Of a stretch of 64,000 bases of DNA, positions 8,238 through 64,000 are shown piece after piece. Source of the stretch: Candidatus Helarchaeota archaeon (GTDB lineage Archaea > Asgardarchaeota > Lokiarchaeia > Helarchaeales > RDOG01). How positions within the stretch are numbered: position 1 is the stretch's first letter; each line of letters opens with the position of its first letter. Position numbers and translations under genes: made by a program. Under the pieces are notes generated by a model, which was not told the DNA's origin, made no database searches, and worked only from the letters and a program-made list of their open reading frames with translations. The stretch lies in the NCBI GenBank assembly GCA_019058315.1, contig JAHPZH010000002.1, positions 768,001-832,000 of the forward strand, read 5' to 3'.

Positions 8238-10007
8238 TTATTTTTTTATCATTTTCATATTTATATGAGAAATTTCCGGTAATTTAAACGGTCTAAATTC
8301 AATTCCATTTCCTTCATAAAATTTACTAAACCATTCATAAAAGTGAAGACGAAGAGCATGAGCTGCTACTATTACAACTTCCAATAATACTGTAAATGCA
8401 GTACCAATTCCAAGAATTATTCCATAAATTAAGATATTATCGAAAGTGGAACCAATTGCTTGAAATGCCTCATTAAGACCATAATGTATCATTATCAAAG
8501 CAAAAATTCGTGCATATGAAGGAAGATTAGTTAAAATACTTAAACCAACTTCCCATGTACGTAATGCAGATTCTCCAATTAATGTCGTTGTCTTTTTCTT
8601 TTTTCTTAAAATTGAATTTAATGGGGTCCCGATAAAAAGAAAAATTAAGGGGATTAAAATTAATAAGATGGGGGGTAAATTTAATAAATACCGGGATGGA
8701 GCGAAATAATTGCCAATATTAAATCCAAAAAAGAATAAACTAATAACAACACCAGTTAATATAAGAAATGAAGGGAATGAAATTAACCATGCTGCATATT
8801 TTTCTTCTCTATTATAATAATTTGCAAATTGAATAATAAAGCCTGAACTAATTTGAATATAACCAATTAAAATAGCTATTTTAAGCATAAAAGTAATATT
8901 ATCTATTACTCCTTCATAATGCCCAAGTCCTTCGGAAAAAATATCAATATAAAACCCCTGATGGGGAAATGGTAACAAAGGTTGAAAACCTGGCCATATA
9001 TCTGAAATATAAAAGCCAAAAAATTCACCATAAATAAACCCTGCTAAAATTGAACCTATTCCACAATAAAATAAAATTTTTGGAATAGTTCGTTTAGTTT
9101 TTAAAGCAATTATAGCACTTCCTATCATTAAGATAAATCCTTGACCAATATCTCCAAACATTAGGCCAAAAATTAGAGGAAATGTAATTGCAATTAGTTT
9201 TGTTGGATCAAATTCATAATAATTAGGAACTCCATAAAGCTTAACGAGCCGAACAAAAGGCTCTAAAACTCTGGAGTGCTTAAAAACTGTCGGAGGAAAT
9301 TCTCTTGTTTCAATTTTTTTTTTTCTTGTTGGTTTTTCTCTTAAAATGATACACTTTTTTGAAGTTATTTCTTGAATTCTACTTTCTAATTCGGAGACAT
9401 TTTTTGAGATGACCCAACAACTTATTATGGAAAATAATGTTGTATGCGTTATATTTTGGGTTGCATCCAAATAAGGAACCAAAAATGATAAATTTCTTTT
9501 ATATGTTAGAATCTCATTATGATATTTTTTAGCTAAGTCTTTTAAATCTAGTTCAAATTCAGTTTTTTCTTTCAATAATAATGAAATCTTTTTATTATCG
9601 TTATGATTCCTTGTTAATTTTTCATATTCTTTTTCTTTTTCAATAATTTCTGATAAATCACGTTCAATGGTCATTTCAATTTCTTCGATATCATAAATTT
9701 CTTTTTCTATAATATCAATCCGTGTTTTATATTCTTCTAGAATTATATCAAGATTTTTTAGATCAATATCTGTAATTTCAATTTTTGATGAGGTATTATT
9801 TTCTATCTTTAATTTTTTAATTATTTTAGATACACGTTCATTAAGAGATTTAAATTCAGAAAAATAATCTTTGACTTTTTCTTTATTAGACTGTTTTTCT
9901 TTACTATCAATTATTTGACAATAACCTAATTGTCCAATTTTCACTAAAACTTCTTTAAAATATTGTTTAGGAAATACCAATACCACTTTTTCTAATTTTT
10001 GCGTTAT
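8238..10007 (-). CDS. atpI: A/V-type ATPase subunit I (a); probable ATA start at 10007
   Basis: YGVPNYYEFDPT, FGLMFGDIGQG, SYARIFAL (essential Arg), LRLHFYEWFSKFY; GGAGG 6 nt upstream of ATA. Confidence 0.92.
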   Translation of the reverse strand: MTQKLEKVVLVFPKQYFKEVLVKIGQLGYCQIIDSKEKQSNKEKVKDYFSEFKSLNERVSKIIKKLKIENNTSSKIEITDIDLKNLDIILEEYKTRIDIIEKEIYDIEEIEMTIERDLSEIIEKEKEYEKLTRNHNDNKKISLLLKEKTEFELDLKDLAKKYHNEILTYKRNLSFLVPYLDATQNITHTTLFSIISCWVISKNVSELESRIQEITSKKCIILREKPTRKKKIETREFPPTVFKHSRVLEPFVRLVKLYGVPNYYEFDPTKLIAITFPLIFGLMFGDIGQGFILMIGSAIIALKTKRTIPKILFYCGIGSILAGFIYGEFFGFYISDIWPGFQPLLPFPHQGFYIDIFSEGLGHYEGVIDNITFMLKIAILIGYIQISSGFIIQFANYYNREEKYAAWLISFPSFLILTGVVISLFFFGFNIGNYFAPSRYLLNLPPILLILIPLIFLFIGTPLNSILRKKKKTTTLIGESALRTWEVGLSILTNLPSYARIFALIMIHYGLNEAFQAIGSTFDNILIYGIILGIGTAFTVLLEVVIVAAHALRLHFYEWFSKFYEGNGIEFRPFKLPEISHINMKMIKK

Positions 10008-39606: not shown

Positions 39607-40767
39607 ATGTTAACAGAAATATTATTTCTTATCGCCGTTGGCGTAATGACTTTTTCAGTTTACTTTTTTGCTAAAGCCGCACTAAAAACCAGAAAATCAT
39701 TACCTTTAATTTATAAATTTATGATTGGCTTTTTAGTTATTAATGCTTTTACAATCGATTATGCATTTGCATATTTTTTTCTTTATTTAAATTATTTTAC
39801 ACCAGAAATATTCGTAACTTATCGATTCTTTTTTGAAATATTAATGGGTGTCGTTGGTTTCTATATTTTCTTCGACTCTAGGTTCAGAAAAATTAAATAT
39901 AACTATTTAAGTAAATTTCTCATTATTTTATTTGCTGTTGTCATTGGTGAAGCTTATTTAATCTATTTTTCCCAAACCCCCTTTCTTTTTAATGATATCG
40001 ACTTTTTTAAATTATTATTTGACTTTTATAACAATCATCCTATGTTATTCATAATTTTCGGATTACAAAAACTATATTCATTTATAGGTATTGTGATATT
40101 TTCTCTAAATATTTGTTTTATTGTATTAAAAAATAAAATTTATTCATTGAAGGCAAAAATACTTCTCACAATTGGGATTTTAACATTTATAGATATCCTT
40201 TTTACTATTCCAGTATGGGAAGCGTTCACTGGTGAAATCAATTTGGTATATATTCTTTGGATTTTTTGCTATTTCTTCATAATTTTCGCCAGATTAACAA
40301 AAATCAACTTTAAAGCAATTTCAGGAATACATGAAATTTTGATAACCTACAATGATGGAAGATTACTATATAATACAGGAAATGAACAGCTGGATCCTTT
40401 TTTAATAACTGGAGCATTATCTGCAATAATTTGTTTTTTGAAAGAAACTTTGCATAGCAAAAAGAAGGTGCGTTCAATTGATCATCAAGATAAAAAGATT
40501 CTATTCTCATATGGTGAATTCATTATTACAAGTGTAATTACCGATGAAGATACACATATTGTATATAATAAAGTGGAACAACTCACACATGACTTTGAAA
40601 AACAATTTTATGGTGTTTTAAAACATTGGAATGGGGAATTAACCACATTTTCTTCAGCTTGGTTCATTATTGATAATATTTTTCCAGTCAGTGGGTGGAT
40701 GCACAAAAAATCAGTTGAAGAATTCAAGGATAGCATTTTAAATAAAATTAAACAAATTGAAAAATAG
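39607..40767 (+). CDS. multi-pass membrane protein with C-terminal longin-like domain
   Basis: About 7 TM, then ILITYNDGRLLY / LITGALSAI / IDHQDKKILFSYG / WNGE pattern. Confidence 0.65.
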   Translation: MLTEILFLIAVGVMTFSVYFFAKAALKTRKSLPLIYKFMIGFLVINAFTIDYAFAYFFLYLNYFTPEIFVTYRFFFEILMGVVGFYIFFDSRFRKIKYNYLSKFLIILFAVVIGEAYLIYFSQTPFLFNDIDFFKLLFDFYNNHPMLFIIFGLQKLYSFIGIVIFSLNICFIVLKNKIYSLKAKILLTIGILTFIDILFTIPVWEAFTGEINLVYILWIFCYFFIIFARLTKINFKAISGIHEILITYNDGRLLYNTGNEQLDPFLITGALSAIICFLKETLHSKKKVRSIDHQDKKILFSYGEFIITSVITDEDTHIVYNKVEQLTHDFEKQFYGVLKHWNGELTTFSSAWFIIDNIFPVSGWMHKKSVEEFKDSILNKIKQIEK

Positions 40768-48146: not shown

Positions 48147-48965
48147 ATGGAAGAAGAATCAGTTGTTAATAAGTATCCCATAGTATTTTTTTATATCACT
48201 GTATTAGCGATTGGATTTATTGCTTTAATACCTGTAATATTTTTTGGAATTGGTATATTCACATTAATTTCTGCTACTAGTGCGAGTTTAGGTGCTATAA
48301 TTTTTGTTGGTATAACAAGAAAAAAGGAAGGTCTTAAGGATCTATTTAGCACCTTTAAGAATTGGCGTTGTAACCCAGTTTGGTATATTATATCTATTTT
48401 TTTAATGCCTGGTCTTACACTTCTTGCAATGGGAATTTCTATTATGCTTGGTCTTCCTCTAAGATCAAGCTATCTAACCCCTCCACCTTTACGAAATTTA
48501 GAATTATTCATTTTTCAGTTCATATTTATATTTTTTCAGGCAGGTTTAGGTGAGGAAATCGGTTGGCGCATCTACGCTACTCCAAAGCTTGCAGAAAAAT
48601 ATTCAAAATTAAAAGCAGCCCTAATAGTTGGTGTTCTTTGGGCTTTCTGGCATACTCCTTTATTTTTATTTCCGGGAACGTTACAACATGAAATGTCAGT
48701 CCAAGCCGGATTTTTATTTGCTTATTCGGGATATATGTTGTACGTAGCTCTTTCTGCTATTTTATTTGCATGGGTATATTTTCAATCAGGTGGAAATGCA
48801 TGGCTACCTGTATTGCTTCACACAACCCTGAACGCGGCTAACTGGCTCTTACTGCCGGAAGCTCCCTTCATAGTGAAGATGGTTTTTACTGTTTTAGTAT
48901 GGATCCTTTCTATATTAGTTGCAGCGGTTTATGGTTCTGATCTTTCTCGAAAAATTAAGGATTAA
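48147..48965 (+). CDS. CPBP family (CAAX protease type II / Abi) intramembrane protease
   Basis: GEEIGWR, WAFWH, LLH...N. Confidence 0.88.
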   Translation: MEEESVVNKYPIVFFYITVLAIGFIALIPVIFFGIGIFTLISATSASLGAIIFVGITRKKEGLKDLFSTFKNWRCNPVWYIISIFLMPGLTLLAMGISIMLGLPLRSSYLTPPPLRNLELFIFQFIFIFFQAGLGEEIGWRIYATPKLAEKYSKLKAALIVGVLWAFWHTPLFLFPGTLQHEMSVQAGFLFAYSGYMLYVALSAILFAWVYFQSGGNAWLPVLLHTTLNAANWLLLPEAPFIVKMVFTVLVWILSILVAAVYGSDLSRKIKD

Positions 48966-49599: not shown

Positions 49600-50919
49600 A
49601 AACCTAATGGATTTTTTCTTTTCTCAGTTTTATATGAGTCTTTTCCCTTTTTATTAACAAAAATGAATAGTTAAATTGCAGATGAAACATGAGATTGACA
49701 GAGCACATTCAACTAAAGAAGAGTAAGGAATTATCAAATCTTTGCCATTTATCTAAAAACCTATACAATGAAGCTAACTATATCATAAGACAAAGATTTT
49801 TTAAAGATAGACATTGGACTCGTTATACTGAGCTAAATAAGATTTTAAAAACCTCTACAAATTATAAATCATTACCGATTCAATCTTCTCAACAAATCAT
49901 GAGATTATTGGATAAGAATTGGAAATCGTTTTTCAAAGCAATAAAAGATTGGAAAATATATCCTGAAAAATATTTTGGCAGCCCAAAATTACCGAGATAT
50001 AAAAAGAAGAATGGGGAATATCTGGTCATCTTTACTAACCAACAATGCCGAATTAAAGATGGATTTCTAAAATTTCCTAAAAAATCAAACCTAACACCAA
50101 TTAAAACAAGAATAGACAACAACCTACACCAAGTTAGAATCATACCAAGAGGAGAGAGATACATTTTAGAAATCATTTATGAACAAGATGTAATTAATTT
50201 AGAATTGGATAAAAGCAGAATTATAGGGATTGATTTGGGACTAAACAATCTCGTAACTGTCGTGAATAATGTTGGCTTACAACCATTCGTTATTAAAGGC
50301 GGGATAGTTAAATCTATCAATCAATACTATAATAAGCAATTAGCAAAGTTTAAGTCGATAAAAGACAAGCAAAAATACAAATTTGAAACAAAACGATTAC
50401 AACGCTTAACGTTAAAGAGGAATAATAAGATAAAGAACATATTTCATAAAGTTTCACGAATGATAATTTCTTTTTGTATCGAAAATAATTTTGGAAAGAT
50501 AATTTTCGGATATAATATCGGTTGGAAGCAAAATATAACAATTGGTAAGACAAATAATCAAAACTTTGTGCACGCTCCGTTTTCAAAATTGCTTCAAATG
50601 GTAAAATATAAAGCCGAATTGATTGGAATTGATGTAAAGCTAATTGAAGAAAGCCATACTTCTAAATGTAGTTTTTTAGATGGTGAGTCGATTGAACACC
50701 ACAACCATTACTTAGGAATGAGAGTTAAAAGAGGATTATTCAAGACAAAGAATGGAAAAATAATTAATGCTGATGTAAACGGGGCTTATAATATTATTAA
50801 AAAAGCAGTCCCAAATGCCTTCTCGGTTGATGGGATAGAGGCACTTGGGTTAGTGCCACAATCTATTTTGATATAATAGATTGAAATAAATCTTATCATA
50901 TTTGATAGATTTTTGTAAC
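49600..50919 (+). mobile_element. solo tnpB insertion sequence (IS1341-like, no tnpA); left end uncertain
   Basis: tnpB with a hairpin-rich 3' end finishing in TAAC at 50919; no transposase adjacent. Confidence 0.55.
49689..50876 (+). CDS. tnpB: RNA-guided endonuclease TnpB
   Basis: SKNLYN, GIDLGLNN (RuvC-I), NNQNFV, EESHTSK, RGLF, NADVNGAYNI (RuvC-III). Confidence 0.92.
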   Translation: MRLTEHIQLKKSKELSNLCHLSKNLYNEANYIIRQRFFKDRHWTRYTELNKILKTSTNYKSLPIQSSQQIMRLLDKNWKSFFKAIKDWKIYPEKYFGSPKLPRYKKKNGEYLVIFTNQQCRIKDGFLKFPKKSNLTPIKTRIDNNLHQVRIIPRGERYILEIIYEQDVINLELDKSRIIGIDLGLNNLVTVVNNVGLQPFVIKGGIVKSINQYYNKQLAKFKSIKDKQKYKFETKRLQRLTLKRNNKIKNIFHKVSRMIISFCIENNFGKIIFGYNIGWKQNITIGKTNNQNFVHAPFSKLLQMVKYKAELIGIDVKLIEESHTSKCSFLDGESIEHHNHYLGMRVKRGLFKTKNGKIINADVNGAYNIIKKAVPNAFSVDGIEALGLVPQSILI

Positions 50920-53418: not shown

Positions 53419-53991
53419 TTATTGCTTTACTCTTCCTGCTCCTTTAAATTCAATAGTAATGAGTTCATCCTCTAGTTGCATAGCTTCTAATGAGTTTGTA
53501 AATATTTTATATTCCTTACCTATCAATAAGCTAAAATATTTTGAAATCGATTTTATAGCATTTGTAAAAAGGAAAATAGCAGCTTCTTTTTCGGTCTTGT
53601 TATTTAAATTATTCATAAAGAGACTATTTTTTATCGCTTTTGTTTCATCTTCATGAAAATAATATGTTATTGATAATTGTGAGTCCACAGCAGAATGCTT
53701 GTCACTCTCTATTATTAAAAACTTTTTCTTAAACGGGAAAACTTCAGATAACCACGTTTTAAATAATTTGGGTCCATCTTTTTTAAAAAAATCCGCTATT
53801 GATAAAAAAGAACCTGCCCGTTTACTCCAATCTTCATATAAAGCTTTAGCTTTTTCTTGAAATTCAAATAATTTTTCACCAAGCCCTGCGACAATATAAT
53901 CTTCAAAATACTTGTTAGCTATTCCTGCTGTTACTTCTAGGTTGGATTTCATAATAATATCATTAGTGAATTCAATAAATTCCTTTGACAC
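53419..53991 (-). CDS. hypothetical protein, paralogue of 54099
   Basis: Shared WLSE.FPF.K, HSAVDSQL, AIKSIS.YF..LIG..YKI, EF.GAGR blocks. Confidence 0.75.
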   Translation of the reverse strand: MSKEFIEFTNDIIMKSNLEVTAGIANKYFEDYIVAGLGEKLFEFQEKAKALYEDWSKRAGSFLSIADFFKKDGPKLFKTWLSEVFPFKKKFLIIESDKHSAVDSQLSITYYFHEDETKAIKNSLFMNNLNNKTEKEAAIFLFTNAIKSISKYFSLLIGKEYKIFTNSLEAMQLEDELITIEFKGAGRVKQ

Positions 53992-54098
53992 GGCATGTTT
54001 CGCCTTCTATTCTTTTTTAAATCTTTAAAAAGAATAATTTTCCATAATTTTTAAAGGTTTTAATAAAAAAAATTTTAATACAAAATATTTTCAAAGCT

Positions 54099-54680
54099 TT
54101 ATTGAGGACGCCCAGCACCTTGAAATTCTACAAAAATAGATCCATTAACATCAATTTCATATAAATTAATATTTTCAGTGTAAATTTTATATCTAGTTCC
54201 AATTAAATTTTCAAAATAATCCGAGATTGATTTTATCGCATCGACAAATAATATTCTTGCGACGTCATTTATTTTCTCTTTCCATTCGTGAAATTCTAAC
54301 TTCTCAAGAACAAATTGAATATAGTCTAATTCAGCTTTATCGTAAACATAACTAATAATCAATTGAGAATCCACTGCCGAGTGCCCTTCGGGACAATCAA
54401 TTATTAAACTCTCTTTTTGAAATGGAAAAATTTCTGATAACCAATATTGAAACAAATCTCTACCATTCGTGCTAATAAAACCAGATATACCTTCAATAGA
54501 ACCTCCCTGTGTTTTATACTGCTGGAAATGATTGTTAACATATTGTTGAAATAGTATAAGCGCTTCTGGGGAGGCATTTTTCAAATAATGTCTAAATATT
54601 GATTGTAATTTTCCTCCCTCTATTCTTAACTGGGAGAGATTTATAATATTATAAACCAATATTCTAAAACGTTCGCTCGT
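54099..54680 (-). CDS. hypothetical protein, paralogue of 53419 (probable ACG start at 54680)
   Basis: Same conserved blocks; the upstream extension SERF aligns with SKEF of the paralogue. Confidence 0.75.
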   Translation of the reverse strand, partial: TSERFRILVYNIINLSQLRIEGGKLQSIFRHYLKNASPEALILFQQYVNNHFQQYKTQGGSIEGISGFISTNGRDLFQYWLSEIFPFQKESLIIDCPEGHSAVDSQLIISYVYDKAELDYIQFVLEKLEFHEWKEKINDVARILFVDAIKSISDYFENLIGTRYKIYTENINLYEIDVNGSIFVEFQGAGRPQ

Positions 54681-54783
54681 TTTTTAGCACTCCATTTTTT
54701 ACTCTTATTCAAATAAAATCCATCGCTAATATTAAAAATTTATTATATAGGTCTTGTCAATTCTTGCTTTATAAATTGAATGT

Positions 54784-55824
54784 TTAAAGTTTAATAAAAC
54801 GTATGTCTAAATCTTTAGCTTCCATGTGCTCATACTTTCCAGTTATACCAAGTTTGCCCTCATGATCTACTTGTCGTGCCATATGTCCATAAGGTGTCCC
54901 ATTTTTTATTCCTTCAGTAATAAAAGTGTGACGTAGTGAATGAAAAGTGCGTCCTTCTTTCTTTATACCTGTTTGGTTTAATACTTTGTATAAAATTCGA
55001 TTCATTGATGGTATAGAAAGCTCTCCGGATTTTCTAGAGGGAAAAACTATGTCAGAAATATGAGTTTTATGATGAATATAATTATATAATTCTTTACAAA
55101 ATTGCTTTTCAATACGAACTCGGATTTTACCACGTTCTTCTTGATTTTCCTCGGTCTTTCCTTTCCTTAGAAGTCTCACAGTTGGGATGCAGTTTTCACA
55201 ATTTTTAGAACAATAGTTACAATCTAAATCCTGTTTCTTTAACTTCCTTACAGCTGTATTACGTGCACCAGTTCCCACAGCGCTAAATTTTAATAATAGA
55301 TAATTTCTAAGACTTAAAGTTGAATATCTATTATTTTCTAACTCTTTAGAAGCTTCTAAAATCTGTTTAAGTTCATTAATCCTAAATGGCAATTTTTCTT
55401 TTTTTATTGCTTTTACTCTTTCAAAATTTGAGATATCCTCATATTCTTCAATTAAGTTTCTAAGTTTTTCAATTTGTGGACCAAAATCCTTACCGGAACG
55501 CTTTTTTCTCCTTAAAAGTCTTCTCTTAATTCCTATCATATATTTGACAAACGACTTTATTGCTGAAATCCTTCTATTAATTGTTGAACCTGAGCATTTT
55601 CTGCTTCTCATAGTTTCTATATAATCTTCAAGGTCCTCTATTAAGATATTTTCAACATTCTGAATCCCCGTATTTTGACAAAAATCTAGAATATCATAAC
55701 GATAATTACGAATAAGTGATTTTGATTTTCCTTCTTTCTTCTTTTTATCTAAAAATTCTTCAATAATAGTTAAGGATCCACTTAATTCAATTTTTTTATC
55801 CCTAGATTCAATTTCAATTACCAT
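54784..55824 (-). CDS. tyrosine recombinase/integrase (XerA-like) with a Cys-rich insertion
   Basis: STINRRISAIKSF core-binding domain; catalytic R (GAR), K (KGK), HSLRH, H (DH), Y (GKY). Confidence 0.88.
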   Translation of the reverse strand: MVIEIESRDKKIELSGSLTIIEEFLDKKKKEGKSKSLIRNYRYDILDFCQNTGIQNVENILIEDLEDYIETMRSRKCSGSTINRRISAIKSFVKYMIGIKRRLLRRKKRSGKDFGPQIEKLRNLIEEYEDISNFERVKAIKKEKLPFRINELKQILEASKELENNRYSTLSLRNYLLLKFSAVGTGARNTAVRKLKKQDLDCNYCSKNCENCIPTVRLLRKGKTEENQEERGKIRVRIEKQFCKELYNYIHHKTHISDIVFPSRKSGELSIPSMNRILYKVLNQTGIKKEGRTFHSLRHTFITEGIKNGTPYGHMARQVDHEGKLGITGKYEHMEAKDLDIRFIKL

Positions 55825-56006: not shown

Positions 56007-57629
56007 TTAAATCGAAAAATAGTTTCTAATCATTGTATTAATTGGATTAAAAACCTCAATATTTCCGTCCCAGCTAGCTATTGTTTCCCAAAAAACGTTT
56101 TGAATTTCCTCAGTCAAATTTTTCAATTTTGTTCGAAGAATCTTTAGGTCTTTTGAAGCCAATAAAGCTACAGAAAATTGTTTTCCATATTCAAACAACA
56201 GTTTCTTATCTTCATGATCGATAATTTTCAATCTTTGATCACTATGTGTCATTTCTTGTAATATTGCTTGGACTCCAGAAATTCCACCAACAAATAAATC
56301 TGCATCTACTTGTTCAGACTTCTGAAATGAGTAATCTATCAATACTATGCCCCCTTCATTAATTACATAGAGATGAATGAGTTCTTTATCCCATTCCATT
56401 TCTTCAGCAGGAGGAAGGGATTCTTTCATAAAAACAAATGGGATTAATGAGAATTCGCTTATTAAAAAGATGGTTACCAGAATCATTGTATCTATGAATT
56501 GATTTAATGCAGGTAAAGTCATAATATTAGCTATAATAAACCCAAGTCCTCCTCCAATCGCAACTGAGCTCCATCCATATCCATTAAATCGTGCCATATT
56601 ATTTTTTGGAGAAAAATCAGACCAAACAGTACAGATAATTATTACATAACTTGCTGTTATCGTTGAATAGAAAACTACACTGATAATCATGAAAGCAAAA
56701 ATCTCCCAGAATACTAAAAATACCAATACAGTTGGTATAAGCATGTTTGAGATGAAAAAAATATGTTTTCGTCCATATTTGTCCATTAATTTTCCAAATG
56801 CAGGGCTCAATACTAGGTTCATTCCCCCTATTACTAAGAAATCAAGATTTATAAGCCCCAGACCAAATGTATCTGCAAATTGAACATAATATCCTAAGTT
56901 TTTGAGATAAAAACTCATCGGCATATTTGCTTCAAAAAACCTGGTATTTGCTCCTAATAGAAATACAATTATTCCTAAAAACATACCAAAAACCAAAGTA
57001 CTTGTCCAATAAACAAGCCCTGCTCTTTTTACATCAAAATCTCTTGGAATAGTAATTAATGGTTGATATAACAATTCTAATTTTTTTGTTCTAATTAGAT
57101 AAAAACTAACCACTCCAACGATTATATTGATAATTCCTAAAATAAAAATGTTTAAAAAGATATTAAAAGCCGAAATTAGCGCCGTTACTGATACAAAACC
57201 CCATCCTATTCCAAGATAAAGTCCAGCATTTAACCCTCGTTTATTTATTTGAATATTAGATCCTATATAGCTTGTTCCGATTATGACATTAGGACCTGTA
57301 AAAATACCTAACAATAGAACGAGGAATAATGATATTTGTACATTTCCATAAAAAAAAATTAAAAGAAGAGCAAGAGTTCCCCATATAATGAATGAGAGGA
57401 AAAAATAATTTTTATTCTTAATTTTATCAATAATAATTCCACATAAAAGGCTTGAGAATCCAAATGACATCCAAAAAGTTTCCATCCACATTACATCTAT
57501 ACCATAATGAAATACTAGATTAAGAAAAGGCACAAAACCAAAGGTCATTGTGGTCATTACTCCCACAGAGACCAGTAAAAAATGTGAAAAATTTTGAATA
57601 TCGAATTTTGTCATTTTATTATCCACCAT
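56007..57629 (-). CDS. MFS transporter fused to a C-terminal longin-like domain
   Basis: About 12 TM with motif A twice (GIIIDKIKNK, GKLMDKYGRK); C-terminal HLYVINEGG / LFVGGISGV / IDHEDKKLLFEYG / WDGN. Confidence 0.75.
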   Translation of the reverse strand: MVDNKMTKFDIQNFSHFLLVSVGVMTTMTFGFVPFLNLVFHYGIDVMWMETFWMSFGFSSLLCGIIIDKIKNKNYFFLSFIIWGTLALLLIFFYGNVQISLFLVLLLGIFTGPNVIIGTSYIGSNIQINKRGLNAGLYLGIGWGFVSVTALISAFNIFLNIFILGIINIIVGVVSFYLIRTKKLELLYQPLITIPRDFDVKRAGLVYWTSTLVFGMFLGIIVFLLGANTRFFEANMPMSFYLKNLGYYVQFADTFGLGLINLDFLVIGGMNLVLSPAFGKLMDKYGRKHIFFISNMLIPTVLVFLVFWEIFAFMIISVVFYSTITASYVIIICTVWSDFSPKNNMARFNGYGWSSVAIGGGLGFIIANIMTLPALNQFIDTMILVTIFLISEFSLIPFVFMKESLPPAEEMEWDKELIHLYVINEGGIVLIDYSFQKSEQVDADLFVGGISGVQAILQEMTHSDQRLKIIDHEDKKLLFEYGKQFSVALLASKDLKILRTKLKNLTEEIQNVFWETIASWDGNIEVFNPINTMIRNYFSI

Positions 57630-57696
57630 TATTAAAGATAAAGTGTATAATCATGGGTACAATAAAAATTATTCTTATAGAAAAAAATGTTCTACC

Positions 57697-59079
57697 TTAT
57701 TTACCCTTAAAAATCCTTAATATGGTGTCTGCATCATCGATATCTTCTTTAGATAATGATAATATTATCTCTTTTTCTTGTCTTGTGAACTCAAGTTCCT
57801 TAATATCTGGTTCAAGAATGATTTTTTCAATATTTGACCATTGATCTGATAAAAAGGTAAGTGTAAGGTCCTCTTTACGACTATTAAAATTGATTATGTG
57901 AATTAAATTATCGTCACCATAGATAGTACCAATAATTCCAAAATCTTTCTTATTTAATGTAATTCCTGGGACTTTTTTCCCTTTATAATTCATAGGAACA
58001 GCTTCTGTAAATAATAAACGCCTTGGTTTATACCATTTTCCAAGTTGTTCTAATTGTTGAGCTGTTTCTGGGTATAATTCACCATTCATTTGTGCAGCCA
58101 TTCCAAAACCAAATTTGCCCCCATTAGCCATTACTATTGCTGCCATTCGAAATATTTCGTAAGGATCAGATCTAGGTAATGGAGCATCCCAAGCCTTTCC
58201 TGCTGGACCTACTAATTCCCATGGTTTTTTTAGTTTTCTGTATCTCTTCCCTTGTTGCCATGCTGTTTTGGAATCATGAGCTTCACCTGATAGATAATGG
58301 GCATATTTTAGTTTATAATCAATACTTTGATTAAATGTAAGAATAATTTCAGGATATTTCTTTTCCATAAAATACATAACTATATGAGAGGACCTCTCTC
58401 TCATATTTGGAAAATGATACCAATCCATCCATAAACCTGCTGTTTTATAATTTTCGATTAGTTCTACAAGCTGCTTTAACATATAAATTTCATATTTTAA
58501 TGGATTGTATGTAAATTCGTTAAAATAGACATCATCGAAAAATTCTTGTGTATATTGGATGTAATTTCTTTTAATACTAATATCAAACATAGTTTTAACA
58601 AATTTTGCTGTTTCGTAAGATTGTTTTGATATATATTCTTTATTTTTATGATGCATCGCAATGAAAGACGGTGTACAAGATCTTAGTGGTTGAATATCAT
58701 CAAATTGGGAGTTATGATCAAAAATGCTTGAATAATAAAACATTAGTGGAATCCTTGCTTTTTCGCTTTCTTCAGAAAGCAATTTAACGTAATCTACTGG
58801 AGTCTTCCAATTAGTATATTTTGTATCCCAATAACAAATGCCATCATGCCATTTAGCTTCAAAGATGTGATAATCAACCCCAACTTTTTTTGAAAATTCG
58901 ACCCATTTTTTCATTTTACAAAAAGGACCATTAAATTTAAAGTTTCCATCCTTATCTCTCATAGATGCGTTAAATTTATCGTAATTTCGATTCCATATCC
59001 AACCAGGTCTCGCTTCTATCTGATACATTATGGCAAGACCGGGTTTCTCCCACCAATCTTTATTATTTTTATTTGACAT
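57697..59079 (-). CDS. glycoside hydrolase family 29 (alpha-L-fucosidase-like)
   Basis: AKWHDGICYWDT, LWMD nucleophile motif, LGKW. Confidence 0.75.
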   Translation of the reverse strand: MSNKNNKDWWEKPGLAIMYQIEARPGWIWNRNYDKFNASMRDKDGNFKFNGPFCKMKKWVEFSKKVGVDYHIFEAKWHDGICYWDTKYTNWKTPVDYVKLLSEESEKARIPLMFYYSSIFDHNSQFDDIQPLRSCTPSFIAMHHKNKEYISKQSYETAKFVKTMFDISIKRNYIQYTQEFFDDVYFNEFTYNPLKYEIYMLKQLVELIENYKTAGLWMDWYHFPNMRERSSHIVMYFMEKKYPEIILTFNQSIDYKLKYAHYLSGEAHDSKTAWQQGKRYRKLKKPWELVGPAGKAWDAPLPRSDPYEIFRMAAIVMANGGKFGFGMAAQMNGELYPETAQQLEQLGKWYKPRRLLFTEAVPMNYKGKKVPGITLNKKDFGIIGTIYGDDNLIHIINFNSRKEDLTLTFLSDQWSNIEKIILEPDIKELEFTRQEKEIILSLSKEDIDDADTILRIFKGK

Positions 59080-59193: not shown

Positions 59194-60021
59194 ATGAAAA
59201 ATCAAAAAGGCTTTGATCGTGAAGCATATCCCGAGCTAAAAGAGTATTGGGAAAAATTTGAATCCACCGTTAAACCATATATCGAAATAAAAACTAAAAT
59301 TAATGAAAATATGAGTTATTGGCAAAGTAAATTTGGGGGATATCCATACTGGCCTAAGAAAATCGAATTTCCAAAGGATTCAAAAGGAAATTACTTATAC
59401 TTAGTCGCTCAATTGAATTTTGAAGAAATCCCTCAACTTAAGGGATTTCCCCAGAAAGGAATACTACAATGGTATGTATCACCAGATTTAGGTTTATACG
59501 GATTGGATGGTTATAAATTTAAAGATACTATTACTCAAAACAATTGGCGAGTAGTTTATTTCCCAGATATCGAAAAAAAGGAAGAAAATCTAATTACTAA
59601 TTTCTCATTCCTACCCAATCCTAAAGATTATACCACTTGGCCGCCGGTTTTAAAACCATGCTCTTTAAGTTTTAAAAAAGATTATGCTCCAATTGCATTA
59701 TATGATTATCAATTTATTGAACTATTTGGTGATCCATTCGATTTCTTTGGACAACTTGGTGAGGTTGGTGAAGAAGCTATGGATGCTTACAGTGTTGACT
59801 ATTCTGCTAAAGGACATAAGATAGGAGGATATGCAGATTTTGCTCAAGTAGATCAAAGGGTTCCTGAGTGGGGATATAATACTTTACTCTTACAAATAGA
59901 TAGTGAACCATCAAGAGACATCGATTTTGGCTCAGCTGGGGTTGGACACCTTTTTATAAAAAAAGATGATTTGAAAAAGCTAGATTTCTCAAATGTTATG
60001 TATACTTGGGATTGTGGTTAA
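59194..60021 (+). CDS. YwqG/DUF1963 family protein
   Basis: SKFGGYPY, AQLNF, HKIGGY..F.Q, LLLQIDS, TWDC. Confidence 0.85.
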   Translation: MKNQKGFDREAYPELKEYWEKFESTVKPYIEIKTKINENMSYWQSKFGGYPYWPKKIEFPKDSKGNYLYLVAQLNFEEIPQLKGFPQKGILQWYVSPDLGLYGLDGYKFKDTITQNNWRVVYFPDIEKKEENLITNFSFLPNPKDYTTWPPVLKPCSLSFKKDYAPIALYDYQFIELFGDPFDFFGQLGEVGEEAMDAYSVDYSAKGHKIGGYADFAQVDQRVPEWGYNTLLLQIDSEPSRDIDFGSAGVGHLFIKKDDLKKLDFSNVMYTWDCG

Positions 60022-61023: not shown

Positions 61024-61845
61024 ATGTCATCTAGTTCAAATAAAGGTATTTTAAAAATAATAAATAATATTAAAAGCAAAACCTTACCCCAAGATAAATT
61101 AATCGAAAGTATTAAAGAAATTGGCAAAATAGGAAATAAATTTTTAGCGGATGATCTAATTCCATTACTAGATGAATTTGATGATGAGGATATTTTATTT
61201 CAAATTAGAGAAACATTAGCGAAATTAAGAATAACTCCCGGTTTCTTGAATGATACAGGTCTTGAGAAGGAGGATGAGGGAAATATTGCCGAAGCTATTA
61301 GAAAATATGAGTTATGTATAAAATTAGATCCCAATTATTATTATGCTTGGTATAATATGGCTCGAATGTATGGGGACAAAAAGAAGAATTTTCAAAGAGC
61401 AATAGAGTTATATAAAAAAACTCTTTCAATAAATACAACTTATGGACCAGGATGGAATGGTCTGGGAAATGTTTATTTTGATCTAAAGCAATACAGCCTT
61501 GCAAGACAAGCATATGAAAGAGCAATTCAATGTGTAGATTATAAAGGTAAGAATTATCCTTATTATAACTCAGGACTTGTCTATGAAAAGTTGGGTAACT
61601 TGAGGAAAGCCTTAGAGTATTATTTAAAGTCGGTAGAATTTAAACAAGATTATTCTCGTGCTAGTTATAACGCAGGAAGACTTTATAGAGATTTAGGAGA
61701 AAGCCAAAAAGCCTATGAATATTTTGGAACTGCTTTGAAATACGATCAATCATATGAGAAGACGATAAGAGAATTAGGCGTTATTGTAGAGGAAGTTATG
61801 ACAATATATCTATTGAAAAAATTAGATGAATTTGAATTGGAGTAA
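61024..61845 (+). CDS. TPR protein with N-terminal HEAT-like helix pair
   Basis: AWYNMA, GWNGLG, PYYNSG repeats. Confidence 0.85.
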   Translation: MSSSSNKGILKIINNIKSKTLPQDKLIESIKEIGKIGNKFLADDLIPLLDEFDDEDILFQIRETLAKLRITPGFLNDTGLEKEDEGNIAEAIRKYELCIKLDPNYYYAWYNMARMYGDKKKNFQRAIELYKKTLSINTTYGPGWNGLGNVYFDLKQYSLARQAYERAIQCVDYKGKNYPYYNSGLVYEKLGNLRKALEYYLKSVEFKQDYSRASYNAGRLYRDLGESQKAYEYFGTALKYDQSYEKTIRELGVIVEEVMTIYLLKKLDEFELE

Positions 61846-61896: not shown

Positions 61897-62790
61897 ATGT
61901 CTCAAGCTACAAAAAAAAGGATTTCAAAACTCATCGAAGATATTAAAAGTAAAACCCTAACGCACGAGAAATTAATGGAAGCTATTTTAGAGATTGGGGA
62001 AAAAGGAAATAAGTCTTTTGCAGACGATTTAATTCCATTATTAGACGAGATTGAAGAAAAAGATATAAAATTCCAACTTAAAAATTCAATTTTAAAATTA
62101 GGTATAACCGCACAGTATATGAACCAGGAGGGTATTAGAAAAGAAGATGAAAATGATTTAGATGGTGCAATTCGAAAATATGAATTATGCGTGAAACTCG
62201 ACCCAAAACACAAATGGGCATGGTATAACCTGGCGAGAATGTATGATAAACACAAAAATAATTTGGAAAAAGCAATTGAATTTTATAAAGAAGCAGTTGC
62301 AGTTGATAAGAATTATGGGGATGGATGGAATAATATGGGCAATATATATTTAGATCTAAATCAACTTAGCCTTGCAAAACAAGCATATGAAAAGGCAATT
62401 CAAAGTAAAGGTTATGATTTTAAATATTATCCCTATTATAATATAGGTTTAGTATATAATCGGGTTAATAATCCGAAAAAAGCATTAGAATATTTTTTAA
62501 AAGCGATAGAAATAAAATCAGATTATGCCAGAGCTCTATATCATACTGGAAAAACATATAGAATGTTAGAGGAACACGAAAAAGCATCCGAATACTTCGC
62601 ACGTGCACTAGAACATGATAAAAAACTTGAAAAGAGTATGAGAGAGCTTGGAGTAGTTATGGAAGAGGTCATAACGAAACAAATTTTAAGAAAGTTAAAT
62701 AAATTCGAACCTGATCAGGATAAGAAAAGTATAGAAATAAAAGAAAAACCAGTTGAAACCCATGATACTAGAAAGCATGGGGTAAGATAA
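61897..62790 (+). CDS. TPR protein, tandem paralogue of 61024
   Basis: Colinear similarity (IKSKTL, ADDLIPLLDE, AIRKYELC.KLDP). Confidence 0.85.
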   Translation: MSQATKKRISKLIEDIKSKTLTHEKLMEAILEIGEKGNKSFADDLIPLLDEIEEKDIKFQLKNSILKLGITAQYMNQEGIRKEDENDLDGAIRKYELCVKLDPKHKWAWYNLARMYDKHKNNLEKAIEFYKEAVAVDKNYGDGWNNMGNIYLDLNQLSLAKQAYEKAIQSKGYDFKYYPYYNIGLVYNRVNNPKKALEYFLKAIEIKSDYARALYHTGKTYRMLEEHEKASEYFARALEHDKKLEKSMRELGVVMEEVITKQILRKLNKFEPDQDKKSIEIKEKPVETHDTRKHGVR

Positions 62791-62811: not shown

Positions 62812-64000
62812 TTATGAATATGGGGATAAATCATCTTTAATAGCTTTGGAAGGTAATTGCTGAATACCAATTATTTTTACTTGCCGACTAAATTCTTCTA
62901 AATATTTTTGAGATAGTGAAGGTTTAATATTTTTTATATGATTTATTAAATCTTCATTTTGAATTAATATTTTAGGATCTTTCGCTAATTTCCTTTGCAT
63001 TGCATCTTGAGCTGCTCCTCTAAATACTTTCATGATATCAGCACCCACAAAGAATTTCGACATTTTACTTAATTGATCATAATCTAATTTCTTTTCTATG
63101 GGAAAGTTGGAGGCTAATTTTTGAAAAATTTCGACTCGTTCTTCATGAGTTGGTGGGGGTACGGGTATAATGTATTCAAATGATGAAAGAAGAATATCTC
63201 CTATTTTAGAAAGATCTGAAGTTTCGCATATTAAGATAACCGCAGCTTCTTTTTTGATTTTTTCAAATTCATTAGTAATAAATACGGCAACTTCTCTTGG
63301 AATAAGCTCAAGATTTTGAATTACAATTATACTTGGAGCTACTCTTTCTGCATCGTGTAATAATTCATGAAAATTCTTCCTACTGTCTCTACTGGAAAAC
63401 CAATTTGTTAATTCAATTGCGCTAAAAATGAAATAGTTTGCATTAGATTCTTTCAATAAAGCTTTGTAGAGTAAACTTTTTCCAGTTCCAGGAGGTCCAA
63501 ATAAGATTATACCTTTTTTTGCAGGCAATCCATATTCATGTACTTCTTTAGGATGAACTAATGACATTAACAAAGTATTTTTAAAGAATTCTTTAATAGC
63601 TCCTAAACCCCCGATATCATCAAACGAAATTTTTTCAATTCTTTTAATCTGTGTGACGACTCCCCGTCGTTCAAATCGTTCCCTCATTTCTTGAAATGAT
63701 TTAATATCATCTTCGGTTAAATCAGGTTTAATATTTTCTAAATGAGTCAAAATATCTTTCATACTTATTTTTGTAAATTTATTTGTCTTCATAGCTTCTA
63801 TAGCGACTGCTCTTTGTGCTGATTCACAGATATATTCTATTTCAGCACCTGTATAACCTTTTGTTTTTCTCGCCAACTCTTCATAATCAATATCCTTTGT
63901 GATAGGCAAATCTTTTAAATGAACAGCAAATATTTCTTTTCTAGCATGTTCATCAGGAGGAGGTATTGCTATTCTTTCATCAAGTCTTCCCGGTCTTAAG
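62812..64000 (-). CDS. CDC48/VCP-like double AAA+ ATPase, 5'-truncated by the window edge
   Basis: Frame is open to the edge (LRPGRLD..IPPPD..AR.EIF); second AAA domain has DIGGL and GPPGTGKS but a degenerate Walker B. Confidence 0.85.
   Translation of the reverse strand, partial: LRPGRLDERIAIPPPDEHARKEIFAVHLKDLPITKDIDYEELARKTKGYTGAEIEYICESAQRAVAIEAMKTNKFTKISMKDILTHLENIKPDLTEDDIKSFQEMRERFERRGVVTQIKRIEKISFDDIGGLGAIKEFFKNTLLMSLVHPKEVHEYGLPAKKGIILFGPPGTGKSLLYKALLKESNANYFIFSAIELTNWFSSRDSRKNFHELLHDAERVAPSIIVIQNLELIPREVAVFITNEFEKIKKEAAVILICETSDLSKIGDILLSSFEYIIPVPPPTHEERVEIFQKLASNFPIEKKLDYDQLSKMSKFFVGADIMKVFRGAAQDAMQRKLAKDPKILIQNEDLINHIKNIKPSLSQKYLEEFSRQVKIIGIQQLPSKAIKDDLSPYS

Follow-up and report, generated by a model that had tools for sequence, protein, structure and literature searches.

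A conserved fusion of a predicted MFS carrier to a longin-fold tail in a Helarchaeota genome

What might a membrane carrier do with a longin domain on its own C-terminus? The question is raised by a single 540-codon open reading frame (ORF) at 56007-57629 (-) of the 64,000-nt stretch of DNA analyzed here (the window; Candidatus Helarchaeota archaeon, assembly GCA_019058315.1, contig JAHPZH010000002.1, positions 768,001-832,000 of the forward strand), which encodes a major facilitator superfamily (MFS) carrier, a linker and a C-terminal longin domain. A co-oriented 460-aa ORF of the glycoside hydrolase family 29 (GH29) type precedes it, and an initial annotation of the window had read the two genes together as a candidate sugar transceptor, that is, a carrier for a fucose-type sugar whose tail signals to a small GTPase. 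We find that the observation as a whole is confirmed and that this interpretation is partly supported. The fusion is genuine and conserved, lacks annotation and lends itself to experiment, and the reading that we favour, with somewhat better than even confidence, is that of an MFS carrier with a built-in cytoplasmic protein-docking module. The coordinates given for the two genes and the 67-nt gap between them (57630-57696) were correct; the orthologue N-termini align at Met6 of the 540-aa frame, so that the start is probably at 57614, which gives a product of 535 aa and a gap of 82 nt. A gene resembling glycoside hydrolase family 36 (GH36), a second longin fusion and a Ras-family GTPase (there called Rab-like) are all present in the window as well.

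A large protein database holds about 27 full-length orthologues (46-69% identical over 95-100% of the length, each in one frame), which come from independent assemblies named as Helarchaeota, Lokiarchaeota or Promethearchaeota. Misassembly or a frameshift as the origin of the fusion is thereby ruled out, because these independent assemblies keep the same continuous frame. No tail-less relative of the carrier was found among the 297-945-aa proteins of that database, nor in this genome. Mean pairwise identity is 70% in the linker and 59% in the longin domain as against 50-53% in the two carrier halves, which places the strongest constraint at the C-terminal end. As judged from these sequences, the fusion is maintained under purifying selection, and carrier and tail form an obligate unit within a narrow orthogroup of Helarchaeota-type genomes and a few Lokiarchaeia genomes. 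Among species-representative genomes the orthogroup is present in 6 of 41 close relatives, mainly members of the same order together with one genus of another family, and in 4 of the 301 sampled across the phylum. In a tree of 175 tail domains it forms one clade with two further transporter-longin representatives, P0037 and P0045 (SH-aLRT, the Shimodaira-Hasegawa-like approximate likelihood ratio test, 99). The carriers of these two are homologous to the one studied here (~1e-45 by phmmer) and are the sole related ones among the transporter-longin representatives, so the carriers of the other MFS-longin lineages are either unrelated or very distant. The deep nodes of the tree lack resolution, and a single origin of MFS-longin fusions is therefore indistinguishable from repeated fusion.

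Three features of the gene product mark it as a predicted MFS secondary carrier: profile, helices and motif A. It matches Pfam MFS_1 (PF07690) over residues 19-363 with 66.1 bits (cut-off 33.4, E 3.5e-18). An AlphaFold2 model made from the 27-orthologue alignment has 12 long helices, six in residues 11-180 and six in 200-399, for which the predicted local distance difference test (pLDDT) is mostly 85-96, and an extra short helix in the loop between transmembrane helices (TM) 7 and 8. The TM8-TM9 loop contains the canonical motif A (G279-x3-D283-x2-G286-R287-K288), which is invariant across the 27 orthologues; the TM2-TM3 copy is degenerate, with G64 and D68 alone retained. Since the motif-A loops of MFS proteins face the cytoplasm, and these loops are rich in Lys and Arg here, the longin tail is predicted to be cytoplasmic. 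Foldseek matches of the carrier were MFS carriers only and covered many specificities (SV2A, OxlT, DgoT and GLUT5; TM-scores about 0.5-0.6). NCBIfam gave only weak mixed matches, all far under cut-off (PgtP, aromatic acid, multidrug), and the carrier matched neither Sugar_tr of Pfam nor a sugar-porter model. When the carrier part was searched with phmmer, no useful solved relative appeared among PDB sequences, and the search of all ORFs of the 5.8-Mb genome returned only the carrier itself and no paralogue.

No part of the protein is more conserved than the linker (residues 401-416; KESLPPAEEMEW), the 16 residues that join TM12 to the longin domain, in which S404, L405, P407, E410 and W413 are invariant in the 27 orthologues. 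Its Pro/Glu/Trp pattern recurs throughout the membrane-tethered longin family, and W11 of the domain is near-invariant in a 73-sequence alignment of that family. Residues 403-540 match no Pfam or NCBIfam family, the one hit in Pfam at E<=1 being a chance-level match to Vac14, and a profile search of PDB sequences with the tail gave only non-significant matches (TRAPPC1 and Trs23 at E 0.03-0.4, and roadblock proteins). On both grounds we regard the tail as a separate, unmodelled sequence family.

AlphaFold2, supplied with the 73-sequence alignment, modelled the tail domain with a pLDDT of 91 and a predicted template modelling score of 0.85. Secondary structure assigned to the model by DSSP follows the order b1-b2-a1-b3-b4-b5-a2-a3, a five-stranded sheet with two C-terminal helices and no N-terminal helix; GGISG at the start of a1 and IDHEDKK in the b3-b4 hairpin are conserved motifs. 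The model was compared exhaustively with 48,161 PDB representatives (VIA-align). Solved longins reached Z 10.5-12.3 over the full tail domain (model residues ~14-138) and belong to GTPase platforms, SNAREs and coats: Fuzzy longin 1 (7q3d_C, Z 12.3, 121 residues aligned at a root-mean-square deviation (rmsd) of 2.7 A), TRAPP Bet5 (3cue_C, Z 11.7), Sec22 (3egd_C, Z 11.6), VAMP7 (4afi_B, Z 11.6), sigma and mu subunits of AP adaptors (Z 10.8-11.4) and Mon1-Ccz1 (Z 10.8-11.0). SRX scored Z 10.2-10.7 and a solved Lokiarchaeota longin domain (8yqg_B) Z 9.9. Roadblock/MglB proteins scored Z 8.4-10.4, with alignments limited to residues 10 to ~117 of the tail, and Foldseek concurs. We conclude that the tail is, as modelled, a longin-fold domain and not a roadblock, because roadblocks score lower, end near residue 117 and lack the last helix. 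Structure prediction, which the initial annotation had put forward as a check, thus bears out both folds, the 12 helices of the carrier and the longin order of the tail, and with the Pfam and structural matches it upholds the description of a complete 12-TM MFS carrier that runs in frame into a longin-like domain. Longins of the GTPase-activating protein (GAP) type, such as FLCN, NPRL2 and SMCR8, have a conserved GP motif and an arginine finger, and Asgard longins with GAP-type motifs are known (PMC12290439). In the 73-sequence family alignment neither an Arg nor a GP comes close to invariance, as judged without a residue-level alignment of that motif; R499 is conserved within the orthogroup only, and the GAP-type longin Lst4 ranks low (Z 8.5).

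A domain so closely tied to its carrier could serve the carrier alone, as an intrinsic regulatory or oligomerization domain that gives no signalling output, in the manner of the STAS domain of SLC26/SulP carriers or the CBS pair of ClC channels. Two carriers would then pair through their tails, or the tail would fold back on the cytoplasmic gate. The obligate association of carrier and tail and the short, conserved linker fit such a role, as does the fact that longin and roadblock domains are usually dimeric; the title of PDB 8yqg describes a dimer of a Lokiarchaeota longin domain. A prediction for a complex of two tail copies, made with the 73-sequence alignment (score 0.29, mark 0.42), is evidence neither way. 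Against this reading, tails of the same family are found on many non-carriers and as soluble proteins, and the full-length AlphaFold2 model gives a tail of low confidence from which contact between tail and carrier cannot be read. We consider it unlikely.

How widely the tail is shared was seen when residues 403-540 were searched against 1.84 billion representatives, which yielded 966 family representatives at E<=1e-3, 339 of which pass the stricter limit of E<=1e-10. Among the 150 best, the tail almost always stands immediately after a membrane helix. About 60 of these are 340-400 aa long with 5-9 helices; ~31-34 are 500-630 aa long with at least 10 helices, and most of those tested match MFS_1; the remainder are short anchors and several giants (750-2640 aa) with a signal-like N-terminus and one helix followed by the tail. 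In the genome studied here, a hidden Markov model (HMM) of the family finds 132 ORFs, 72 of them behind membrane helices and ~60 soluble. The 72 membrane-tethered members include 44 with 5-9 helices, which resemble seven-transmembrane (7TM) proteins, and ~21 large single-pass surface proteins, and the studied gene is the only member with at least 10 helices. The second longin fusion of the window is one of the 7TM-like members (domain residues 247-365, E 3.6e-28 with the tail HMM); it has no Pfam match and lies 15 kb from the carrier gene, unlinked to it. Across the 73 aligned family sequences the near-invariant residues are structural only (W, G, F and L). Such a pattern would be expected of a common scaffold with divergent surfaces, and it suits paralogues with different partners better than a shared catalytic site.

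The breadth of the family invites another explanation, that the tail is a sorting or localization tag read by coat-like or adaptor machinery, which would place the proteins in a particular membrane region such as protrusions or vesicles, much as the longin domains of Sec22 and VAMP7 are read by COPII and AP-3. The module occurs on unrelated classes of membrane protein (7TM-like proteins, single-pass giants and an MFS carrier), and the SNARE longins and the adaptor sigma and mu subunits score as high against the tail as do longins of the guanine-nucleotide exchange factor (GEF) type. A single reader should, however, keep a common surface, and the residues conserved family-wide are structural ones; moreover, internal compartments or coats are not established in Lokiarchaeia cells (PMC10933270, PMC4917890). 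A sorting role therefore seems improbable to us.

We return to the favoured reading, a carrier with a docking tail. Here the last carrier helix would pass through the short conserved linker into the cytoplasmic longin domain, and this tail would recruit a soluble partner to the carrier and so regulate the carrier or report on its state. Candidates for this partner are the ~100 small GTPases and other proteins of the longin or roadblock type. The docking role is deduced from the behaviour of longin domains in solved complexes. Several points weigh against this reading. Solute transport by the carrier is itself a prediction from sequence and model, and the docking partners that we name are candidates only. 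Likeness of fold is no proof of a common function, and longins also serve as SNARE regulators and coat subunits. The neighbourhood adds little: an all-against-all comparison of the seven loci found no conserved neighbour gene. The nearest Ras-family gene lies outside the unit, 6.46 kb from the carrier gene and beyond the integrase and TnpB genes, and its distance is at chance level; with 96 Ras-family genes by Pfam Ras, or 109 by iterated search, in 5.8 Mb, one is expected within 7 kb at ~21% of random positions. Across this genome, a GTPase gene lies within 3 kb of 17 of the 72 membrane-tethered longin genes (9.0 +/- 2.8 under random placement) and within 7 kb of 27 of the 72 (15.4 +/- 3.4), an excess that is under twofold, is inflated by non-independent tandem arrays and gives no support for the studied gene. 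The link to a GTPase that the initial annotation drew from the window is accordingly not upheld, since about one position in five would have such a neighbour and none is conserved in the seven loci. The integrase and TnpB genes, which stand between the carrier gene and the GTPase gene, suggest that there has been local rearrangement.

A stronger version of the docking tail is a single-chain transceptor, in which TM12, as it moves in the rocker switch, would act through the rigid, conserved linker on the tail, and the tail would then dock or release a specific small GTPase or a longin or roadblock partner. We hold such a role to be distinctly unlikely. If it were true, the GTPase network of Asgard cells would receive direct input on how much solute is available at the membrane, and the protein would be an archaeal precursor of the carrier-Ragulator-Rag scheme found on eukaryotic lysosomes.

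The sugar transceptor first proposed for this locus goes further still. It links transport of a fucose-type sugar to the GH29 gene and has the longin tail signal to a small GTPase, on the model of SLC38A9-Ragulator-Rag. Several observations speak for it. The GH29 gene is on the same strand, 67 nt upstream, and its 460-aa product matches Pfam Alpha_L_fucos with 69 bits (cut-off 25.2, E 6.3e-19). Matches of the protein to solved alpha-L-fucosidases by phmmer are distant (2.8e-6 to 6gn6_A); its LWMD216-219 aligns with LWFD of that structure, and the Asp of this motif is the nucleophile of the GH29 family. It has no hydrophobic N-terminal signal and is for this reason probably cytoplasmic. A conformational change could travel from TM12 to the tail along the rigid, conserved linker, and the genome has 96-109 Ras-family GTPases with few known regulators. 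There is also a faint carbohydrate theme near some of the orthologues, where a UxaA-type sugar-acid dehydratase gene stands directly upstream in locus L005 and sugar epimerase genes occur in L004 and L006; these hints are too weak for naming a substrate.

The remaining evidence speaks against the sugar transceptor. The GH29 gene is beside the carrier gene in none of the six orthologous loci (6-8 kb of flank), and in each of the three relatives that carry both genes (G003, G005 and G029) the two are on separate contigs. Of the two features that the initial annotation proposed to survey across Asgard genomes, then, the fusion proved to be conserved, in 27 orthologues, and the linkage to the GH29 gene proved not to be. 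The 169-aa neighbours in L001 and L002 have no relationship to one another, and neither is a longin. In the spacer a T7 run lies 10 nt past the GH29 stop codon and may terminate the GH29 transcript, and TATA-like words stand ~12-25 nt before the carrier ATG, so that co-transcription of the two genes is not assured; at 30% G+C both kinds of word are expected by chance and neither signal means much. The carrier lacks a sugar-porter match and has generic MFS proteins as structural neighbours, and no GTPase gene is conserved nearby. Finally, more than 70 other membrane proteins of the genome, none of them a transporter, bear the same tail, which is hence no transporter-specific sensing device. The GH36-like gene, 10 kb from the carrier gene, is outside the unit. 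We conclude that the GH29 adjacency, found in this genome only, is a local accident that says little about substrate, that the proposed carbohydrate link is left without support, and that the sugar reading, which we judge very unlikely, should be abandoned for this window.

Table 1. Features of the window, with the evidence on which each assignment is based.
Feature	Coordinates	Strand	Evidence
MFS carrier part, residues 1-400	56430..57629	-	Pfam MFS_1, AlphaFold2 helices, residues invariant across the 27 orthologues
Juxtamembrane linker, residues 401-416, MKESLPPAEEMEWDKE	56382..56429	-	Pairwise identity, invariant residues
Predicted cytoplasmic longin domain, residues 417-540	56010..56381	-	AlphaFold2, VIA-align, Foldseek, pairwise identity
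AT-rich 67-nt spacer between GH29 gene and carrier gene	57630..57696	-	Read from sequence
GH29-like (alpha-L-fucosidase family) gene, 460 aa	57697..59079	-	Pfam PF01120, phmmer alignment to 6gn6_A
Second longin fusion, 386 aa, ~7 membrane helices, longin tail SIDHQDKKILFSYG	39607..40767	+	Tail-family HMM
Melibiase/GH36-like glycosidase, 798 aa	43544..45940	-	Pfam Melibiase 5.6e-19, Melibiase_C 2.4e-5
Ras-family small GTPase, 187 aa	48984..49547	-	Pfam Ras 1.2e-36
Tyrosine recombinase (integrase), 346 aa, directly downstream of carrier gene	54784..55824	-	Phage_integrase 6.9e-14 and SAM-like N-domains
TnpB gene (IS605 OrfB)	49689-50876	+	OrfB_IS605 1.3e-20

Other genes of the window and its surroundings are recorded here in their own right. 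After the integrase gene come two co-oriented ORFs of ~190 aa (54099-54659 and 53419-53991, both -) that have no Pfam match; together with the integrase (53419-55824 in all) and the TnpB gene they give the flank of the carrier gene the appearance of mobile-element traffic. The Ras-family GTPase ends in ...LINHRR, without a CAAX box, and its gene is convergent with a gene for an Rce1-like (CAAX/CPBP) membrane protease at 48147-48965 (+); another Rce1-like gene (L006, 9530-10276) lies ~2 kb from the MFS-longin orthologue of that locus. On the far side, a DUF1963 protein (E 4.6e-54) is encoded at 59194-60021 (+), divergent from the GH29 gene. Tandem tetratricopeptide repeat (TPR) paralogues with near-identical N-termini and weak MIT-domain matches follow at 61024-61845 (+) and 61897-62790 (+), and adjoining this pair is an AAA ATPase gene at 62812-63999 (-) with AAA_lid_3 and a weak Vps4_C match.

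Other members of the tail family were noted outside the window. A tandem array of seven 7TM-like longin genes occupies 1284347-1291641 (+) of contig C5, and directly after it are two Ras-family GTPase genes (1291717-1292205 and 1292471-1292944, both -); this region (1284347-1292944) is the clearest longin-GTPase cluster of this genome. Some 12 paralogous ORFs of ~1110-1150 aa, without a hydrophobic segment, have the same longin domain at the extreme C-terminus (for example C2 190304-193639, C3 1294723-1307811, C5 978363-981764 and C11 691675-695088), and their representative P0100 has weak TPR and MIT matches only. At one orthologous locus only, L005, a soluble 129-aa longin of the same family (8415-8804 (-), E 2.4e-14) is encoded ~760 nt downstream of the MFS-longin orthologue P0014.

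Longin domains have been noted in Asgard archaea before. Lokiarchaeum has 41 longin-like domains, some of them fused to Arf-like GTPases (PMC4917890); 130 roadblock/longin asCOGs have been catalogued, with NPRL2-like longins fused to two-component domains (bioRxiv 10.1101/2020.10.19.343400); and structures of Asgard roadblock and Rab proteins are available (PMC10933270). The tail described here belongs to the same Asgard-specific expansion and shuffling, as does the Roadblock-Longin protein of PDB 8yqg. In the papers searched, the fusion partners are GTPases, TRAPPC3, DENN and two-component domains, whereas here the partner is an MFS carrier. A search of the literature outside subscription journals found no mention of a longin on an MFS carrier or of a juxtamembrane longin family, and because none of the papers searched mentions such a fusion, we describe the protein as two known domains in an undescribed, conserved combination.

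The question to which this family speaks is how the ~100 Asgard Ras-like GTPases, which lack lipid anchors, are tethered to membranes and receive input signals. The large juxtamembrane longin family, found alike on carriers, 7TM-like proteins and giant surface proteins, offers a testable candidate for the link between GTPases and the membrane, and the carrier fusion is its easiest member to assay, because transport is measurable. Should the tail bind a GTPase in a substrate-dependent manner, carrier-coupled nutrient sensing would predate eukaryotes; should it bind none, the family would still be an abundant, unannotated cytoplasmic module of Asgard membrane proteins.

Among known systems, the tail is closest in fold and in strand and helix order to longins of eukaryotic GTPase platforms, namely Fuzzy of CPLANE (7q3d), the TRAPP subunits Bet5/TRAPPC1 and Trs23/TRAPPC4 (3cue, 2j3t, 7b6d) and Mon1-Ccz1 (5ldd). 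The likeness extends over the whole 125-residue domain (Z 10.8-12.3, rmsd 2.7-3.4 A) at just 10-15% identity and with no match to the Pfam longin models (Longin, Sybindin, Fuz_longin_1 and others). The eukaryotic longins are, however, soluble subunits of hetero-oligomers; here the longin is the C-terminal tail of a predicted integral membrane carrier. A solute carrier is physically tied to GTPase regulators of the longin/roadblock type in SLC38A9-Ragulator-Rag and in PQLC2-C9orf72/SMCR8/WDR41, of which the PQLC2 case has been described (PMC12290439). In those eukaryotic systems the carrier and the longin or roadblock proteins are separate chains, whereas here, as read from sequence, they are one chain and the carrier is of the MFS type. 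SLC38A9, an APC-fold carrier of amino acids, binds Rag-Ragulator through a disordered N-terminal tail and not through a longin domain of its own, and for this reason the analogy differs in kind. The general plan of a small alpha/beta domain placed after the last membrane helix of a carrier or channel is familiar from the STAS domains of SLC26/SulP carriers and the CBS domains of ClC proteins. Those domains have another fold and are specific to their carrier families, whereas the longin tail also occurs on receptor-like, non-carrier proteins.

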